A DNA stretch of 64,000 nt. Source: an uncultured virus (IMG/VR IMGVR_UViG_3300024343_000011) (lineage: Duplodnaviria > Heunggongvirae > Uroviricota > Caudoviricetes > Crassvirales). The notes beneath the pieces were generated by a model. It saw only the letters and a list, made by a program, of their open reading frames with translations, made no database searches and was not told the origin of the DNA. The first letter of the stretch is position 1, and each line of letters begins with the position of its first letter. Shown piece after piece: positions 3,985 through 17,404 of this stretch. The DNA lies in IMG/VR virus record IMGVR_UViG_3300024343_000011, one strand, 5' to 3'. Both the position numbers and the translations under genes were made by a program.

Positions 3985-4004
3985 GTCTATTTGTTTTTTA
4001 TTTG

Positions 4005-4047
4005 AACCACGGAGGGGAGTCGAACCCCTCTCGTTCCTTTCGTGGTT
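4005..4047 (-). ncRNA. tRNA-like minihelix (acceptor-like stem + T-arm)
   Basis: AACCACG-AAAGGAACGA-GAGGGG-UUCGACU-CCCCUC-CGUGGUU; perfect stems and a canonical T-loop. Confidence 0.65.
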
Positions 4048-4360
4048 AGTCCTCGTCGTGTCCAAGCATCTGAGCCAGTGCCTTGTGCATGTCGAGTGGG
4101 ATAAAGTCCTCGACGTGGCTGTACTCTTTTAACTTGCCCTTGATGTGCCATACTAGGTCTTGCAGTTCGCTCACCTCGTTAGGGCTGGGCTCCACCAACT
4201 CGATGTTGGTGTCCTCGACGATGATGTTGCACTGCTCCAACTCTTGGTAGTTTATGGTGTCCTTGTTGTCGTCCAACCAATCGTGTACCTCGATGGTGTT
4301 CTCTGCATCTACTACCAACTCTGTGGCGTAGGTTCTGCTGATGATTACGTTGTATTTCAT
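4046..4360 (-). CDS. hypothetical protein
   Basis: 104-aa ORF with TAATG coupling. Confidence 0.65.
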   Translation of the reverse strand: MKYNVIISRTYATELVVDAENTIEVHDWLDDNKDTINYQELEQCNIIVEDTNIELVEPSPNEVSELQDLVWHIKGKLKEYSHVEDFIPLDMHKALAQMLGHDED

Positions 4361-5061
4361 TATTTTAGTTTGTTGATTAGGTTGATGATGTTGTCCAATT
4401 GGTTCATGTGAATCTCGTAGTAGTCGTCGCTCCTTGAGTGGTTGTGCAGTTCGTTGAACTCGTCCATCGCCACGTCCAATGTGTGTAGCATGGCATCGAA
4501 GTCCTCGGACTTGTAGTCGCCTAGGCCGGCCTGTTCTGGCTCGTCCGATGTCGCTCTTCTGAGTATCGATGTCGCTCTCTCGTGCCCCTCGACCATCAAC
4601 TCATCCACGAAGTTGTACAAGTCATTGTAACTTGGCCTTGCATAGTCGACCTCTTCTGGCTCGTCTCCCTCTCTCATGAGGCGGTACTCGGATCCACTAG
4701 CGCAGTCCCATATAGCCTCTTGGTCATGGTGCTGTCCTAGAACGATGGCGACCTCCTTGGTCTGCACGTTCTCTGAGATGTCAAAGATGAATCGGCCAGC
4801 GTTGACCCAGCATCCCATGTAGTAGTTCGGGTCGGCCAATTGCTCGGCATGGCGGAGGAAGTAAGACCTACCGAATGCGATAAGGTCGCAACCACTTGGA
4901 GCCGTCTCCTCGTATCCCTTGATGGATACCATGAAGCCTTGGTCGGGGTTGTGGTCGCCCGTGTTGATGTTGTAAGAGAAACCGATGTGGTTTGTTTCAG
5001 CGTTGCGCAAGTGTGCGATGAGTGTGTTGTGGCTAGTGCCCATTACGATAGTTGATTTCAT
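4360..5061 (-). CDS. hypothetical early protein; N-domain resembles a domain in the giant virion protein
   Basis: GFSYN...GFMVS...MGCW...FDIS...AIVLGQHHDQEAIWD; start reassigned to ATG 5061 after a promoter. Confidence 0.7.
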   Translation of the reverse strand: MKSTIVMGTSHNTLIAHLRNAETNHIGFSYNINTGDHNPDQGFMVSIKGYEETAPSGCDLIAFGRSYFLRHAEQLADPNYYMGCWVNAGRFIFDISENVQTKEVAIVLGQHHDQEAIWDCASGSEYRLMREGDEPEEVDYARPSYNDLYNFVDELMVEGHERATSILRRATSDEPEQAGLGDYKSEDFDAMLHTLDVAMDEFNELHNHSRSDDYYEIHMNQLDNIINLINKLK

Positions 5062-5084
5062 GTCAGTTGTTATTAAAGTGTTCA

Positions 5085-5116
5085 CAATGTTAGTTATAAT
5101 ATCCGTACTTTCCAAA
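5085..5116 (-). promoter_or_regulatory. Bacteroidota-type early promoter
   Basis: TTTG-N20-TAACATTG. Confidence 0.6.
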
Positions 5117-5117
5117 T

Positions 5118-5516
5118 TTATTTTCTTGATTCTATCCAAAGTTTAGCGCGATAGTTCATCTCTGACTCAGACATTACCACGTCGATGAAGTCGGTTCCCT
5201 CTAGGTTCACCACGTTCAACTCTATGATTTGGTTTCCCTCGTCGACAGATACGTGGTATCCGTTCTCCTCGAACCATAGCCATGCCATCTGAAATTCAGT
5301 CCTACTTGGGGCTTGGCTCATGACTTTGTGTAGGTCGGTATCTTGGAAGTGCATCTCGCTTCCGTCCAAGAAGTACAAGGTCTGACGTGTGCCGTCGATG
5401 GTCTCCACGATGTGGGCTCTGACCTCGCCGTGCTCGATTACTTCGTACATGCTGTCGTCCTCGCTAGAGATGATGTAAGGCCATTTTACTTCGGGTAATT
5501 TGTTTAAGTGCTTCAT
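5118..5516 (-). CDS. hypothetical protein
   Basis: MKHLNKLPEVKW...; start 20 nt after the hammerhead cleavage site. Confidence 0.7.
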   Translation of the reverse strand: MKHLNKLPEVKWPYIISSEDDSMYEVIEHGEVRAHIVETIDGTRQTLYFLDGSEMHFQDTDLHKVMSQAPSRTEFQMAWLWFEENGYHVSVDEGNQIIELNVVNLEGTDFIDVVMSESEMNYRAKLWIESRK

Positions 5517-5530
5517 GTTCTTGTTGTTTT

Positions 5531-5586
5531 GGTTAAGATGGGGTGCTTCCACCCCATTTCGACTATTAAAGTCTCATCAGTTAACC
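5531..5586 (-). ncRNA. type I hammerhead ribozyme (AUC cleavage)
   Basis: GGUUAA-CUGAUGA-GACU-UUAAU-AGUC-GAAA-UGGGGUG-GAAG-CACCCCA-UC-UUAACC: complete core and three stems. Confidence 0.9.
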
Positions 5587-5880
5587 TTATTTTGATACGA
5601 TGCTATGCTCTTTGATATGTATGGCACAATCATATTCGCAGTTGATTGTTGTGCGCTCGTATCGTGTTCCTCCTTTGGCCGATTGACGTAATACCTTTGT
5701 CAAGTTCGCATAGTTGTAGGGGATGTCCTTGAACGTGTAGATTGGAGAGGTCTCCTCGATTAAGGTCACCGATAATGGCGTGTAACCTAGTTTAGCGATG
5801 CCATTGTACATGGCTTTGATGTTGGTGTACACGTCCGTGTGAAGGCCGTCCTCACTTAGATTGATTGAATAGATTTTCAT
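5587..5880 (-). CDS. hypothetical protein flanked by two hammerheads
   Basis: 97-aa ORF. Confidence 0.7.
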   Translation of the reverse strand: MKIYSINLSEDGLHTDVYTNIKAMYNGIAKLGYTPLSVTLIEETSPIYTFKDIPYNYANLTKVLRQSAKGGTRYERTTINCEYDCAIHIKEHSIVSK

Positions 5881-5894
5881 GTCGTTGTTGTGTT

Positions 5895-5961
5895 GGTTAA
5901 GACATGGATGAGTTCGCTATGCTCACCCATGTTTCGGTCATTCAGACCTCCTCAGTTAACC
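5895..5961 (-). ncRNA. type I hammerhead ribozyme (GUC cleavage)
   Basis: GGUUAA-CUGAGGA-GGUC-UGAAU-GACC-GAAA-CAUGGGUGAG-N9-CUCAUCCAUG-UC-UUAACC. Confidence 0.9.
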
Positions 5962-6228
5962 TTGGGTGATTGCTTCCTTGATGGCCTTTAGTTCAGCCCT
6001 CATTTGTGTGGCCGTCCCCTTGATGCCAAAGTAAGCCTTGACGTCCGATATCTTCCAATGACGATTGGGCTTCATTCCAATTTCGTACAAGCCTAGGTCT
6101 CTGATTGTAACGATTAGATTGTAGTACCCCTTTGGAGTAACTTTTCCGTTGATGTTGATGGCCTTACTCTCGTCGATTAGGTCTGCGAAGAATTGGCTTT
6201 TTCCGTTGATGATTTGTTGTGTGTTCAT
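5956..6228 (-). CDS. first gene of the early operon, hypothetical
   Basis: 90-aa ORF; its stop codon lies inside hammerhead stem I. Confidence 0.7.
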   Translation of the reverse strand: MNTQQIINGKSQFFADLIDESKAININGKVTPKGYYNLIVTIRDLGLYEIGMKPNRHWKISDVKAYFGIKGTATQMRAELKAIKEAITQG

Positions 6229-6251
6229 ATCGTGTGTGTCTTATGACATCA

Positions 6252-6283
6252 CAATGTTACAACCGATTGTTGACAATTACTAA
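6252..6283 (-). promoter_or_regulatory. Bacteroidota-type early promoter
   Basis: TTAG-N20-TAACATTG. Confidence 0.55.
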
Positions 6284-6379
6284 CCTATCAACATTTATTT
6301 TCTCATATTGCAATCTTTTTACAATTCCATGACAATTCATTTAATGCGTAGATTCTCAAGGCCTTGCAGATGGCGGGTT

Positions 6380-6660
6380 TATGATGCGACCATGGGCGGG
6401 GTGTAATGGAAACTCTGAGCGTTTCCGCAGTTTCCGTGCGCTGAGTGGAGCGGGGCACGGGGTCGGGGCTCCGATGGGCACCGCACGGGGCACCCACCTA
6501 GGGCACGGGCGGGCGGTTAGGGTAGGCGCAAGCACCAACCCAAAAGGCCAAAAAATCGGGGCAAGGCCGACCCTCCGATACCCCATGGGGCAAAAAAGAT
6601 CGCTTTCCCCAGCGGCCGGGCCAACGCAATATGGGGGTATTACCCAAAACCTCAGCCCAT
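6380..6660. other. GC-rich non-coding region at the strand switch (candidate genome end/packaging region)
   Basis: G-run-rich with repeated GGGCAC/GCACGGG; lies between divergent gene blocks. Confidence 0.45.
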
Positions 6661-6736
6661 CTGGTACTCGTAGGTATTGTACCTATAGGTATAAATTGAT
6701 CTTAAAAATGTCAACCTTTAGGTTTAATTTTGCCGT

Positions 6737-6871
6737 ATGGCTATAGAAATATCATTACTTGTACCGGACGCGATCTTGCTTGGGATCGAGTACTTTGAGT
6801 CTAACTACCCCGGAGAGACAAACGAGATTGACATCAACTTACTTTTCTTTCGTATCACGATAATGTGGTAA
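6737..6871 (+). CDS. hypothetical protein (not in ORF track)
   Basis: MAIEISLLVPDAILLGIEYF...FRITIMW*, 44 aa, 4 nt after TAATTTTG. Confidence 0.6.
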   Translation: MAIEISLLVPDAILLGIEYFESNYPGETNEIDINLLFFRITIMW

Positions 6872-6887
6872 ACCCTATCTTTGCATT

Positions 6888-7070
6888 ATGAAGAAACCAC
6901 TAAACAATCCAATGCCACCACAGATGTCTGGTATCGCTAAAATGGCCGAGGCCAATTCACAGATGAGGCAGATGAATAAGACCATGATGATGGCAGAAGC
7001 CATGACAATGGCGAAGAGAATGAGCGACATGCCGATGCCGATGAAGGTGAAAGGCAGCTGCGGTAAGTAG
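6888..7070 (+). CDS. small Met/Lys-rich protein
   Basis: Preceded by TATCTTTG-N4, followed by a terminator. Confidence 0.6.
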   Translation: MKKPLNNPMPPQMSGIAKMAEANSQMRQMNKTMMMAEAMTMAKRMSDMPMPMKVKGSCGK

Positions 7071-7101
7071 TCAAAATCGACCACCTTAAGTAAGATCACC
7101 T

Positions 7102-7129
7102 AAAGGCACCCAAATCAGGGTGCTTTTTT
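7102..7129 (+). terminator. intrinsic terminator
   Basis: GCACCC-AAATCA-GGGTGC-TTTTTT. Confidence 0.7.
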
Positions 7130-7347
7130 GTGTCGCTTTTCGTGGATAAGTGTCGGTTTTGTGTTGACAAGTGTCGGTTCTACTTAAAGTGACACTGGAG
7201 GTGGCATGGGTTAACTCATTGATCTTTAATTTCTTATCTCTTTTGTGTCGTTTTTTCTCTGTTCAATACTAATAAAAAAAAAATATATATAGAATAGTAA
7301 ATTATATATATAGTAGTAGGAGACCCATAAATCGACATATCGACACA
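7129..7347. repeat. iteron-like GTGTCG repeats with AT-rich core (origin-like element A)
   Basis: Multiple GTGTCG, inverted CGACA(C/T)A, AAAAAAATATATATAGAATA core; homologous to 59852-60069. Confidence 0.65.
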
Positions 7348-7401
7348 AAGACATTTTAATGTCTTTCTATCGGCCTGATCAACATTTATTATCTTCGCAC
7401 A

Positions 7402-7980
7402 ATGGAACTAACTAGGGAGACCGTCATGGCCGCCTGCTATAAGCTGGGATATAGGTACTTTGAGAATGGAGTTTACAACATGAATGTAATTGGTGTCAAA
7501 AACTCAGCACCGGGGAAGAAGGTAACGAACATCTTCGACGACTGGATGACATTGTCTTACAAGGATGACAAGGGTGTGTGGCAGTTCCACAAGTGGGCAT
7601 GCACGACTGATCCGGGCACGAAGGCGGTAAAGCAGTTCCACAATGCGGGCGGTGTTGCTAGAGTCGTTCCGGGGCAGTACCCTGCCAGCCACTTTGTTGG
7701 TCTTCACCAGGGGAAGTACAAGGCACTTAAGCAGTGCGGGCCTGTAAAGGTATACAGGGACTCGAACAAGGACATGGTCTTCGACGAGACCAAGGTTGAC
7801 ACGGGGATCTTTGGTATCAACATCCACCACGCAGGCGCCGACTCGTCGGTGGTAGAGAACTGGTCTGAGGGATGTCAGGTATTTAAACGGATAAAGGACT
7901 TCAATGAGTTCATGCGGATCGTGCAGTTGGACAAGGGCGAGAAGTGGACATACACATTGATTGAGAGTAAAAATTTATAA
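7402..7980 (+). CDS. putative endolysin/peptidoglycan peptidase (L,D-transpeptidase-like)
   Basis: GINIHH...WSEGCQV His/Cys motif. Confidence 0.6.
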   Translation: MELTRETVMAACYKLGYRYFENGVYNMNVIGVKNSAPGKKVTNIFDDWMTLSYKDDKGVWQFHKWACTTDPGTKAVKQFHNAGGVARVVPGQYPASHFVGLHQGKYKALKQCGPVKVYRDSNKDMVFDETKVDTGIFGINIHHAGADSSVVENWSEGCQVFKRIKDFNEFMRIVQLDKGEKWTYTLIESKNL

Positions 7981-7993
7981 TTATATTTGTGAC

Positions 7994-8209
7994 ATGGCAA
8001 AAAGAGATTACCCACTAAGCCCGACACCAAAGACTGGAACGACTCCAGTTTACAGGATGGAGAGCAAGAGCAAGAGCTACCAAGACAGCATGACGGCATA
8101 CAACAAGGTAAAGGGCAAGTCATCTGGCGCTGACACGTTGAAGCCAAAGGGGCCCGCCAAGAAATACGTCAAGGACGTGCCCACTAGCAGCATCAAGGTC
8201 AAGAAATGA
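7994..8209 (+). CDS. small basic protein
   Basis: MAKRDYPLSPTP...; TATATTTG-N4-ATG. Confidence 0.6.
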   Translation: MAKRDYPLSPTPKTGTTPVYRMESKSKSYQDSMTAYNKVKGKSSGADTLKPKGPAKKYVKDVPTSSIKVKK

Positions 8210-8376
8210 AGGGGGTAAATCATTACAAGAAGGACGGCACGCTACACAGCTCTGGATCTCACAAGATGCCTGACGGGACGCTGCTATCTGGCAAAACACA
8301 CAGCAAGTCAAGTGTAAGATTATTCCACTTAAAGGAGCTGCCCGCCACTATTCAGAAAAAAATAAAACAGAAATAA
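8206..8376 (+). CDS. small basic protein, HKMPDG motif (not in ORF track)
   Basis: MKGVNHYKKDGTLHSSGSHKMPDGTLLSGKTH...; ATGA overlap. Confidence 0.6.
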   Translation: MKGVNHYKKDGTLHSSGSHKMPDGTLLSGKTHSKSSVRLFHLKELPATIQKKIKQK

Positions 8377-8394
8377 TCTTATCTTTGAATCACT

Positions 8395-8589
8395 ATGATG
8401 TACCCTAAAAACCCAGGAAAGCCTACAGGAATGAAGGTTTCTCCAAAAGACATGACTTCCGCAAAAGCGAAGTTTGCAAAAATGAAAGAAAACAGCCCTA
8501 AAAAGGTATCTATTACGGCAGAGAGCATGTCTCCAAGAGAGATGAAGAAAGTCAATAAGAGCATGACCAAGATGGTCAAGAAGAAATAA
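8395..8589 (+). CDS. small Lys/Met-rich protein
   Basis: 64-aa ORF after a promoter box. Confidence 0.55.
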   Translation: MMYPKNPGKPTGMKVSPKDMTSAKAKFAKMKENSPKKVSITAESMSPREMKKVNKSMTKMVKKK

Positions 8590-8709
8590 ATGAAAGCCCC
8601 AATAAAGAAGTCAACGAAATCAAAATCCTTCCCCGACATGAACAAGGACGGCAAGGTAACCAAGAAAGACATCCTGATCGCTAAGGGTGTAATCACCAAG
8701 AAGAAATAA
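8590..8709 (+). CDS. small basic protein with EF-hand-like DMNKDGKVTKKD (not in ORF track)
   Basis: 39 aa, followed by a terminator. Confidence 0.55.
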   Translation: MKAPIKKSTKSKSFPDMNKDGKVTKKDILIAKGVITKKK

Positions 8710-8730
8710 ATTTTACGACAATTTGACAGA

Positions 8731-8754
8731 AAGGGGCTAATAGGCCCCTTTTTT
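8731..8754 (+). terminator. intrinsic terminator
   Basis: AAGGGGCT-AATA-GGCCCCTT-TTTT. Confidence 0.75.
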
Positions 8755-8784
8755 GTATTATATTCGCATCAAATTAAATCAAAT

Positions 8785-10356
8785 ATGATCGTAAAACAAG
8801 TAGACTTCGGCATCGAAGCAAGGGAGAAATTAGTATCTGGAATAGATATTATCGCAAATGCTGTTAAAAGCACGCTAGGCGCTAGGGGCCAGACAGTCTT
8901 AATTGAATCAGACCAGCACACTCATGGCTTGGCGATTACAAAAGACGGGGTCACGGTCGCAAGATCTATCTATTTAGAGGACGCTACCCAAAACTTAGCC
9001 GTTATGATGGTAAAAGAGGCATCCGAGAAGACGGCAACAGCTGCAGGCGACGGAACGACAACTTCTATCGTACTAACCCAAGGGTTAATCCATGGCTCGC
9101 AGCAGTTCATGAAGGCCGAGGACAACCCAACAAAGGTGCTGAGAGAGGTAAAAGAGCTAGCACTGTCAGTTGCGCAGGCATTGGACAGCATGGCTATCCC
9201 CGTTACAGACGATTCTATGGCCTCTGTAGCCACGATCTCCGCAAACAATGACCCAGAGCTAGGGCAGATCATCTCAGACGCTTACAGCATGGTCGGAAAA
9301 GACGGTGTGGTGACCGTTGAGACGTCTCAAAGCTCAAAGACTTACTCTGAGGTGGTATCTGGCATGAAGCTGGGCCGCGGATGGATGTCAAAGTACTTCG
9401 TGACTGACCAGAAGAAGGGCGAGGCGATCCTAGAGGACTGCTACATCTTAATCTCAGACCAGGAGATTACTTCATTGAACAATATCGAGCACCTGCTGGC
9501 ACCGGTTGTGCAGAGCGGTAAGAGCATACTAATTATCGCCGAGATGTCGGAGAACGCACTGAACTCTCTTAACCTTAACAGGCTGAAGGGTGTGATCAGG
9601 GCATGCGCTATCGTTCCACCGAGCTTCGGTCACATGAGATCCGAGATCATGGAGGACATCGCTGCGGCTACCGGGGCACGATTCATCTCTGACGGAACCG
9701 GAGACAATCTGTCTCTGGTCTCGTTTACTGATTTAGGCCATGCCCAGAAGGTGGTGGTCGGAAAGGAGTCGACGATTATCATCACCGACAACGATCTATC
9801 AGAAGAACTTGCTTCTAGAATCGAGGGCATCCGCAATAACCTTGCAGAGGCTACCAACGAGGGTGTGAAGAAGTTCTTGGAGGAGAGGCTCGCTAACCTT
9901 GCGGGCGGCGTTGGCGTTATCTACGTCGGAGCGCAGAGCGATGTCGAGATGAAGGAGAAGAGGGACCGTGTAGAGGACGCAGTGTACGCGACCAAGGCGG
10001 CGATGGAGGGAGGCATTCTTCCTGGCGGTGGTATTGCACTGCTTAACATAGCCGGCGAGATCTGCGGATGCTCTACAGCTAAGAGCATTATCAAGTACGC
10101 ACTGCAGCAGCCATTCAACGTGATCCTAGAGAACGGCGGCTATGACCCGAACGAGGTAAAGGGGGACATTGCCCTAAACTATCAAAATAGTTTCGGGTAT
10201 GGATTCGACGTGAAAGAGGGTGTTGTAGGGAATATGATCGAAATGGGAATCATCGACCCATTAAAGGTTACCAAGAGCGCATTGGAGAACGCTGTCAGCG
10301 TTGCAACGACGATCTTGAGCACCAACTGTATCATCACTAACGTAAGAGCAAAATGA
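8785..10356 (+). CDS. groEL: chaperonin GroEL (phage-encoded)
   Basis: VKSTLG, ITKDGVTVA, AGDGTTT, ERLANLAGG, RVEDA, GIIDPLKV motifs; no GGM tail. Confidence 0.97.
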   Translation: MIVKQVDFGIEAREKLVSGIDIIANAVKSTLGARGQTVLIESDQHTHGLAITKDGVTVARSIYLEDATQNLAVMMVKEASEKTATAAGDGTTTSIVLTQGLIHGSQQFMKAEDNPTKVLREVKELALSVAQALDSMAIPVTDDSMASVATISANNDPELGQIISDAYSMVGKDGVVTVETSQSSKTYSEVVSGMKLGRGWMSKYFVTDQKKGEAILEDCYILISDQEITSLNNIEHLLAPVVQSGKSILIIAEMSENALNSLNLNRLKGVIRACAIVPPSFGHMRSEIMEDIAAATGARFISDGTGDNLSLVSFTDLGHAQKVVVGKESTIIITDNDLSEELASRIEGIRNNLAEATNEGVKKFLEERLANLAGGVGVIYVGAQSDVEMKEKRDRVEDAVYATKAAMEGGILPGGGIALLNIAGEICGCSTAKSIIKYALQQPFNVILENGGYDPNEVKGDIALNYQNSFGYGFDVKEGVVGNMIEMGIIDPLKVTKSALENAVSVATTILSTNCIITNVRAK

Positions 10357-17033: not shown

Positions 17034-17404
17034 AAACCTTTTTGAAATTTGAGTTCACCCCTACACAATGGGCAACACTTCGCAAGTTAATAGAGCAAAC
17101 TACAACCACACCCGACGGGGAGCAAACTTCTTGGGTTAATTGTGCAGTAGTTGAGATAGGATTTATTTGTTTAGAGTGGGGGCAAGTGGATGACAAACCC
17201 GTGTGTACCAAGCAGTCCGATAAATGGGCGGTTGATATTCTATTTTATGCAGAACCACCAAAACAATTTGAGCCGTATGAGGTATTTCCGTCGCCAGTCG
17301 GAATACATACGTTTGCTGGTTGTGATGATTTGTATTTACAAAGTTTTTGCCGTAAATTCCCAGATAGTGAATATTGCAAATTGCCAGAATTAAATGCAAA
17401 ATAA
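17030..17404 (+). CDS. fibre-associated protein (apparent homing target gene)
   Basis: 124 aa; VDIL...P.GIHTFAG motif. Confidence 0.7.
   Translation: MKTFLKFEFTPTQWATLRKLIEQTTTTPDGEQTSWVNCAVVEIGFICLEWGQVDDKPVCTKQSDKWAVDILFYAEPPKQFEPYEVFPSPVGIHTFAGCDDLYLQSFCRKFPDSEYCKLPELNAK

Follow-up and report, generated by a model that had tools for sequence, protein, structure and literature searches.

Paired type I hammerhead ribozymes predicted to separate small genes in the operon of a Bacteroidota-type phage

Introduction

The window analyzed here, i.e., the whole stretch of 64 kb of uncultured phage DNA, contains a leftward operon that begins with three small genes, ORF90, ORF97, and ORF132, all encoded on the minus strand. 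The question raised by this locus is what occupies the first two intergenic gaps of the operon, and what it would do to the transcript that crosses them. The original prediction, made from the sequence alone, placed a type I hammerhead ribozyme in the gap that follows ORF97, described it as the second of two copies, and suggested that the two together would excise ORF97 as a discrete RNA that might even be circularized. Here, we examine these two elements, referred to as HH1 and HH2 (the latter preceding ORF97), together with their relatives in other phages. What occupies these two intergenic gaps of a Bacteroidota-type phage appears to be a pair of self-cleaving ribozymes instead of promoters or small ORFs.

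Two type I hammerheads in consecutive intergenic gaps

HH1 occupies 5531..5586 on the minus strand and is delimited by its sequence, its fold, and a family model. Read in the direction of transcription, it consists of the stem I 5′ strand GGUUAA (5586-5581), the core CUGAUGA (5580-5574), a 4-bp stem II, GACU/AGUC, closed by the loop UUAAU (5573-5561), GAAA (5560-5557), a 7-bp stem III, UGGGGUG/CACCCCA, closed by the loop GAAG (5556-5539), U16.1 and C17 (5538-5537, the “AUC” triplet being 5539-5537), and the stem I 3′ strand UUAACC (5536-5531), with a predicted cut at 5537/5536. HH2, delimited by the same three kinds of evidence, lies at 5895..5961 on the same strand and has a predicted cut at 5901/5900. 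Its stem I is identical to that of HH1 and its core reads CUGAGGA; stem II is formed by GGUC/GACC, whereas stem III is longer than and unrelated to that of HH1. The two cores differ at position 7, which is free in hammerheads.

Both copies follow the same order of elements, namely the 5′ strand of stem I, the core, the stem II hairpin, GAAA, the stem III hairpin, UC, and the 3′ strand of stem I, and both have type I topology, with stem I open and stems II and III closed by loops. The hammerhead core is present in each (CUGAUGA...GAAA...UC in HH1 and CUGAGGA...GAAA...UC in HH2), with a complete set of invariant positions as well as the G10.1-C11.1 and A15.1-U16.1 pairs. The minimum free energy (MFE) fold is the canonical three-way junction for HH1 (z -3.52) and HH2 (z -4.00), and 1 of 200 shuffles folded equally well in the corresponding control. 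Each element listed in the original prediction (core, GAAA, stems, and AUC triplet) was found on the minus strand, the assignment to type I was borne out by the element order and the MFE fold, and the stem I said to be common to the two copies, GGUUAA/UUAACC, is indeed present in both.

A family covariance model, R1, was built from 141 sequences, comprising HH1, HH2, and 139 other phage copies. It scores HH1 at 68.3 bits over 5528-5589 (E ~1e-14) and HH2 at 61.1 bits over 5892-5964 (E ~7e-13). These are the only R1 matches in the 64-kb window when both strands are searched with filters off, the next best hit reaching 12.2 bits, and a regex scan of both strands found no further complete hammerhead in the window.

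HH2 and HH1 fill the first two intergenic gaps of the operon. The TAA stop codon of ORF90, the first gene (5956..6228, minus strand), lies at 5958-5956 and doubles as the final three nucleotides of the 5′ strand of stem I in HH2. ORF97, of 97 aa, lies between the two ribozymes (5587..5880, minus strand); it starts 20 nt past the HH2 cut, and its TAA (5589-5587) abuts stem I of HH1, which agrees with the predicted start of HH1 immediately after the ORF97 stop codon. ORF132 (5118..5516, minus strand) follows HH1, with its ATG at 5516, again 20 nt past the cut. The 20-nt leader after the HH1 cut (5517..5536, minus strand) consists of UUAACC and an A/C-rich tract without a Shine-Dalgarno sequence, and the 20-nt leader of the ORF97 mRNA after the HH2 cut (5881..5900, minus strand) is nearly identical to it; outside the two ribozyme sites, the window has no mismatch-free occurrence of this leader motif. 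Hammerheads cleave 3′ of position 17, leaving a 2′,3′-cyclic phosphate and a 5′-OH. With cuts at 5537/5536 and 5901/5900, the 5537/5900 junction given in the original prediction was correctly computed, and the double cut would free a discrete ORF97 RNA with a predicted length of 364 nt (5900..5537).

Standing among Rfam families

Neither HH1 nor HH2 was recovered by Rfam 15, which gave no match in the whole window at gathering scores; RF00163 (Hammerhead_1) and the other Rfam hammerhead models did not reach their gathering scores anywhere in the window. When positions 5000-6500 were searched at E up to 10, the sole hammerhead family to appear was RF03152 (RAGATH-1-hammerhead), which left HH2 unmatched and scored HH1 at 25.1 bits, well under its gathering score of 56.3 and thus outside family membership. 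The RAGATH-1 (pseudoknot) hammerhead resembles HH1 in its type I order, its core, and the start of its stem II. However, the extra 5′ hairpin of RF03152 is not formed in HH1, the alignment flags non-standard pairs, and stem II has 1 bp in the RF03152 model, versus 4 bp in HH1 and HH2.

A phage family of intergenic type I hammerheads

Related elements were sought by four pattern scans of viral contigs, which returned at least 128, at least 125, at least 125, and at least 136 loci. The first pattern combined the shared stem I strand with the core and CGAAA; among the matches listed, there are up to 5 copies in 4.4 kb, and UUAACC follows the variable hairpin in 157/167. Because this pattern imposes stem I, the scan was repeated with stem I unfixed, using two patterns that fix the core, the stem II closing pair, and the UNAAU loop, and neither stem I nor stem III. 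Together, the two repeat scans listed 245 unique raw matches, of which 239 form each of the three free pairs of stem II and 239 yield a complete type I hammerhead parse. Stem I has 6 bp in 237 of the 245 listed, compared with a mean of 24.6 when the upstream 10 nt were swapped among matches. There are 79 different stem I words among the matches listed, the commonest being GGUUAA (59/245), and the dinucleotide at the cleavage site reads UC in 207 of the same raw matches and UA in 32.

The 139 family copies were aligned with HH1 and HH2. In this 141-sequence alignment, 98.4% of cells are paired, as against 62.3% after shuffling and 31-36% with slid partners; the 98.4% is inflated, since the parser that chose the 139 sequences demands pairing, and the unbiased figure for the structure is the raw-match count (239/245 listed). 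The diversity of pair types is not inflated in this way. Changes on both sides are seen in 14/16 pairs, and the covariation score is 0.889 versus 0.172, with none of 500 shuffles as high.

Placement is equally regular across the 160 non-redundant copies listed. An A precedes stem I in 158 and follows it in 158, with a second A at the next 3′ position in 122. Downstream, an ATG opens an ORF of at least 35 codons in 154 of the 160; its median distance from the cut is 27 nt (interquartile range 23-35), and the ORFs that follow have a median length of 82 aa. An upstream ORF was identified for 136 listed copies, and in 80 of them it terminates at a stop codon that overlaps or directly adjoins stem I. 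HH1 and HH2 conform to every one of these placement rules. The family thus appears to share a build in which stem I is exactly 6 bp and flanked by A, stem II is 4 bp, stem III varies freely, and the next gene starts some 20-30 nt past the cut.

In 21 of 341 unique members listed, stem III resembles an intrinsic terminator, with an A-tract, a GC hairpin, and a U-tract, and 20 of these 21 have the stem I GGUUAA; examples are L027, L029, L039, L061, L112-L114, L121, and L122, but not HH1 or HH2. Given this resemblance, one hairpin could act as both a terminator and a ribozyme helix.

A search of 596 Gb of cellular genomes with the stem I pattern found 113 loci, of which 19 are full hammerheads, all on short contigs of metagenome-assembled genomes (MAGs). 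The remaining loci were rejected as hammerheads, as they look like chance pattern matches. Some of the short MAG contigs carry 6 copies in 3 kb, and this distribution fits DNA of lytic phages rather than prophages. Four such contigs from one MAG (L421, L422, L439, and L440) are especially dense, with as many as 6 hammerheads in 3 kb, or roughly one for each small gene; the leader is conserved among these copies, and their stem I contains a G-U wobble (GGUUAA or GAUUAA with UUAAUC).

A candidate tertiary contact between loop II and the tail

In the fourth scan, both stem I and loop II were left free; it listed 149 unique raw matches, 115 of them full hammerheads. Across these 115, the final loop II base combines with the nucleotide directly 3′ of stem I as U:A in 84 cases, A:U in 20, G:A in 9, and G:G in 2, while A:A and U:U do not occur among them (Fisher p 8e-22 for the A/U cells). 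The 20 A:U cases span 15 different stem I words among the matches listed, which indicates that the A:U swap arose many times. Both window copies are U:A: the last loop II base is the U at 5565 in HH1 and 5940 in HH2, and its candidate tertiary partner is the A just 3′ of stem I at 5530 and 5894, respectively (all minus strand).

Contacts between the stem I side and loop II are what give natural hammerheads their speed at cellular Mg2+ concentrations, as is generally known and as stated by Perreault et al. (2011; PMC3088659). The loop II–tail pair is a candidate for a single-pair tertiary contact of this kind that would define a sub-family, and such a contact would also explain the fixed 6-bp stem I. 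Mutual information of loop II position 2 or of N7 with the flanks gave nothing convincing. It is worth noting that 4-nt GNRA-like loops II co-occur with a U just 3′ of stem I.

Genes and phage context

None of ORF90, ORF97, and ORF132 belongs to a Pfam or PHROG family. ORF97 is an orphan, with only 6 proteins, at 85-100% identity, among 5.8 billion clusters. Compared with its homolog in the nearest distinct relative discussed below, ORF97 has a dN/dS of 0.084 at a dS of 0.97, and is therefore a real gene.

Elsewhere in the window, Pfam and PHROG matches include GroEL, virion proteins, a crAss muzzle-like C-terminal domain, a BT4734-type primase, ribonucleotide reductase, and a Sak annealing protein, in addition to portal-region genes and ORFs of 1968 and 3227 aa. 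Primase relatives in GenBank come from phages of Flavobacterium, Nonlabens, Polaribacter, Cellulophaga, and Bacteroides, the best being that of an uncultured 60.85-kb podovirus (59.5% identity over 99% of the protein). The host phage is most likely a podovirus-like phage of roughly 65 kb whose relatives infect Flavobacteriia and other Bacteroidota. The window would then represent nearly the whole genome, the longest contig in the ORF97 cluster being 64,945 bases, and a Bacteroidota host would fit leaders without a Shine-Dalgarno sequence. Megablast of positions 4000-9000 against GenBank phages gave no match, and a tRNA scan found none.

Predicted regulatory signals around the ribozymes were not in excess: between 3500 and 7500, there are 6 sigma-70 promoters versus 6.7 in shuffles, from a model ill-suited to Bacteroidota-type promoters, and 8 terminators versus 4.5 in shuffles, which were not called above the shuffled level.

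Upstream of ORF90 (minus strand), the region between the divergent operons includes a GC-rich non-coding stretch (6400-6650; 60-67% G+C versus ~43% around it) that holds terminator-like hairpins and is a candidate structured RNA. Part of this flank is conserved in the nearest distinct relative discussed below (window 7052-6541, 72% identical), and an Rfam search of the non-coding region 6200-7450 at E up to 5 returned noise only. Where the leftward and rightward operons diverge, the gap also holds, at ~7120-7185 on the minus strand, three direct repeats of a ~10-nt word with a consensus close to AACCGACAC; these AACCGACAC-like repeats resemble an operator, an iteron, or a phage promoter.

Gain and loss of ribozyme sites among relatives

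One other contig (L129) represents the same phage, being 100% identical over 5411 bases. The nearest distinct relative among the matches listed (L130) is 70-81% identical in DNA and 85% identical in ORF97, with a dS of about 1. It keeps the ribozyme that follows ORF97, i.e., the ortholog of HH1, which scores 66.1 bits and retains the core. The original prediction had taken the covariation between the two window copies, whose stems II and III differ yet still pair, as a sign of selection on structure. This pattern holds between HH1 and HH2, and extends to the comparison of HH1 with the L130 ortholog, in which three stem pairs are changed on both sides and none is broken.

The surroundings of this shared ribozyme differ between the two phages. 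In L130, the non-coding region is followed first by ORF97, and neither ORF90 nor a ribozyme precedes that gene. An extra 59-aa ORF (ORF59) sits just after the leader of the shared ribozyme, and the homolog of ORF132, a 142-aa ORF at 3403-3831 of L130, is followed by a second ribozyme (67.2 bits). No decayed ribozyme was found at 5135-5040, the window counterpart of this second site. Two ribozymes therefore enclose a different gene pair in L130, and since ORF97 has no ribozyme before it there, the “excised ORF97” unit is not conserved. These differences suggest that ribozyme sites are gained and lost along with small genes. In a more distant comparison, no R1 match at E up to 1 was found in the first 50,000 bases of MW202828.1, a 60.85-kb relative (60,850 bases), and the absence of ribozymes from these 50 kb suggests that no particular gene needs one.

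Such turnover brings up a different explanation, in which the ribozyme and its leader are mainly a repeated intergenic module through which small-gene cassettes spread or are exchanged by recombination, with cleavage playing a minor part. Besides stem I, the HH1 and HH2 sites have in common the 20-nt leader and the opening bases of the following gene, and no other place in the window carries this leader; each of the three stems is more similar between copies of one contig than between copies of different contigs (among those listed); and all three differences in gene content between the window and L130 fall at ribozyme sites, namely ORF90 with HH2, the ORF59 insertion, and the extra ribozyme after ORF142. 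The synteny comparison, however, is with one relative, and compensatory change has preserved the core, the helices, and the candidate tertiary pair in hundreds of divergent copies, which requires selection on a folded, active RNA and not on a mere DNA repeat. We consider it unlikely that exchange of cassettes is the main reason for these elements.

The circular-mRNA hypothesis

The original prediction also regarded a circular mRNA as conceivable. In this scenario, the 364-nt ORF97 unit would be ligated head to tail, by a host RtcB or by hammerhead self-ligation, into a translatable circular phage mRNA. If true, this would be a natural circular, translatable phage mRNA. The predicted ends are chemically suited to ligation according to established hammerhead chemistry, and the stems I of HH1 and HH2 are identical, so that the 5′ UUAACC of the unit could re-pair with GGUUAA of HH1. 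There is also precedent for the reaction itself: as reported by Cervera and de la Pena (2020; PMC7229834), RtcB circularizes retrozyme RNAs bounded by type I hammerheads, and RNAs between two such animal-retrozyme ribozymes were circularized in vitro to ~30-80% by RtcB and to ~1-3% by self-ligation.

Across the family, the stems I of adjacent copies listed are fully cross-compatible in 33/51 cases, compared with 10.7% of random between-contig pairs. However, they are not fully interchangeable in the other 18 of the 51 adjacent pairs listed, and the similarity is not confined to stem I: among the copies listed, identity within versus between contigs is 53% versus 7% for stem I, 44% versus 5% for stem II, and 34% versus 3% for stem III. 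Since the within-contig resemblance extends to stems II and III, the sharing of stems largely reflects paralogy. Stem I identity was therefore rejected as a family-wide sign of selection for matching ends.

Other observations likewise speak against the circle. In a ribozyme-derived circular RNA, the unit should be bounded by ribozymes in all relatives; instead, the bounded unit differs in L130, which has no ribozyme before ORF97. In both the MFE and the centroid fold of the 364-nt unit, the 5′ UUAACC is unpaired and does not pair with HH1, and no RtcB or RNA ligase was found by Pfam in the 82 of 85 window ORFs scanned. Circular or spliced products were already considered by Perreault et al. 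(2011; PMC3088659), who looked for them in their own cases and detected none, and our literature search found no natural phage case of a circular product. These comparative data are a first test of the circular-mRNA idea, and its outcome is negative: with a unit that is not conserved in L130, a stem I rule that fails, a free 5′ end in the predicted fold, and no ligase among the ORFs scanned, a circular ORF97 mRNA finds no support. The idea is unsupported rather than refuted, and we regard it as quite improbable.

That HH1 and HH2 are decayed or inactive hammerhead-like relics, or chance motifs, is scarcely credible, because, although no Rfam family matches them at gathering score and their activity is a prediction from sequence, they carry the full invariant core including G10.1-C11.1 and A15.1-U16.1, reach E ~1e-14 and ~7e-13 with the family model, and show compensatory changes relative to the L130 ortholog.

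Proposed role in transcript processing

We favor the reading that HH1 and HH2 are genuine cis-cleaving type I hammerheads that cut the leftward operon transcript into single-gene mRNAs, and assign it a probability of about 0.78. The motif, its fold, its covariation, its membership in a large phage family, and its fixed stop-to-start placement are direct observations, and from them we infer that both copies would cleave in vivo.

Upon transcription of the operon, each ribozyme would fold into a 6-bp stem I, a 4-bp stem II with a UNRAU-type loop, and a stem III hairpin, and HH1 and HH2 would each cut after C17. Three products would result, one carrying ORF90, one of 364 nt carrying ORF97, and one with the remaining genes of the operon. 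At its 3′ end, each upstream piece would retain a stable, almost entire ribozyme bearing a 2′,3′-cyclic phosphate, and the downstream pieces would begin with a 5′-OH and a fixed, unstructured, A/C-rich leader of 20 nt that runs straight to the AUG. The use of such processing may be to uncouple neighboring genes, each of which would have its own mRNA ends, its own stability, and its own context for translation start. This role resembles that of the ribozyme insulators of synthetic biology. Gains in stability or translation from such uncoupling are plausible on general grounds. It counts against the processing explanation that most genes of the leftward operon are tightly packed without a ribozyme; the later genes overlap or abut one another, with no ribozyme between them. 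Further points against it are the shifting positions of the ribozymes between relatives, with HH2 missing from L130 and the second L130 site missing from the window, the lack of R1 matches in the first 50 kb of MW202828.1, and the failure of either copy to reach an Rfam 15 gathering score.

Comparison with known systems

Intergenic hammerheads that bracket single small genes of changing identity have been known in phages since 2011, and HH1 and HH2 add further members to this arrangement. In the study of Perreault et al. (2011; PMC3088659), multiple hammerheads flank single genes in prophages and processing into single-gene mRNAs was proposed; all ribozymes in ~2-kb transcripts were cleaved in vitro, and one triple arrangement was cleaved in E. 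coli. The clustered arrangement of that study is seen here as two same-strand copies that bracket ORF97 in phage DNA. By contrast, the examples tested there were mixed-type prophage arrangements in Clostridium, Azorhizobium, and Agrobacterium, whereas HH1 and HH2 are both type I and belong to an apparently lytic phage lineage. Three family motifs and the core word were not found in the searched part of the supplements of that paper.

The animal retrozymes described by Cervera and de la Pena (2020; PMC7229834) are similar to the HH2-ORF97-HH1 unit in having two type I hammerheads, a length of a few hundred nucleotides, and ends suited to RtcB. Retrozymes, however, code for no protein, consist of tandem repeats in which the ribozymes are identical, and have been observed as circles, whereas the ORF97 unit is a protein-coding gene of a DNA phage, is bounded by ribozymes that differ in two stems, and is known from its sequence alone.

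A likeness in placement is offered by type I hammerheads that RNA mycoviruses carry in their 5′ UTRs, and the role in translation proposed for them (Lopez-Galiano et al., 2026; PMC13725137) parallels the one considered here. These ribozymes, like HH1 and HH2, fill an intergenic UTR and cut a few nucleotides before the start codon, 7 nt before it in one case. The mycoviruses are RNA viruses of eukaryotes, whereas HH1 and HH2 lie in phage DNA, and no clear loop-loop contacts are described in the mycovirus ribozymes, in contrast to the covarying candidate tertiary pair of the phage family.

Finally, the same architecture is present in a cultured phage, Flavobacterium phage vB_FspP_elemoA_7-9A (MT497017.1; host Flavobacterium sp. 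BAL314), with an R1 score of 57.8 bits. Like HH1 and HH2, this copy, at about 17,287-17,350 of MT497017.1 (L493 5994-6057), lies between two small same-strand genes; it differs in being the single copy in the 12 kb examined and in its stem I (GGCAAA/UUUGUC), and it is unannotated. A 35-aa “hypothetical protein” on the opposite strand is annotated exactly over this hammerhead (MT497017.1 17275-17382; L493 5962-6069), and is probably a spurious gene call. Overall, this hammerhead family is very large and very frequent in lytic-phage contigs, yet invisible to Rfam at gathering scores, and because of this invisibility and of the spurious small ORF over the site in at least one cultured phage record, routine annotation misses it. 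Since the build of the family is, as it appears, so sharply defined, the function of phage hammerheads would be directly testable in this cultured Flavobacterium phage-host pair.
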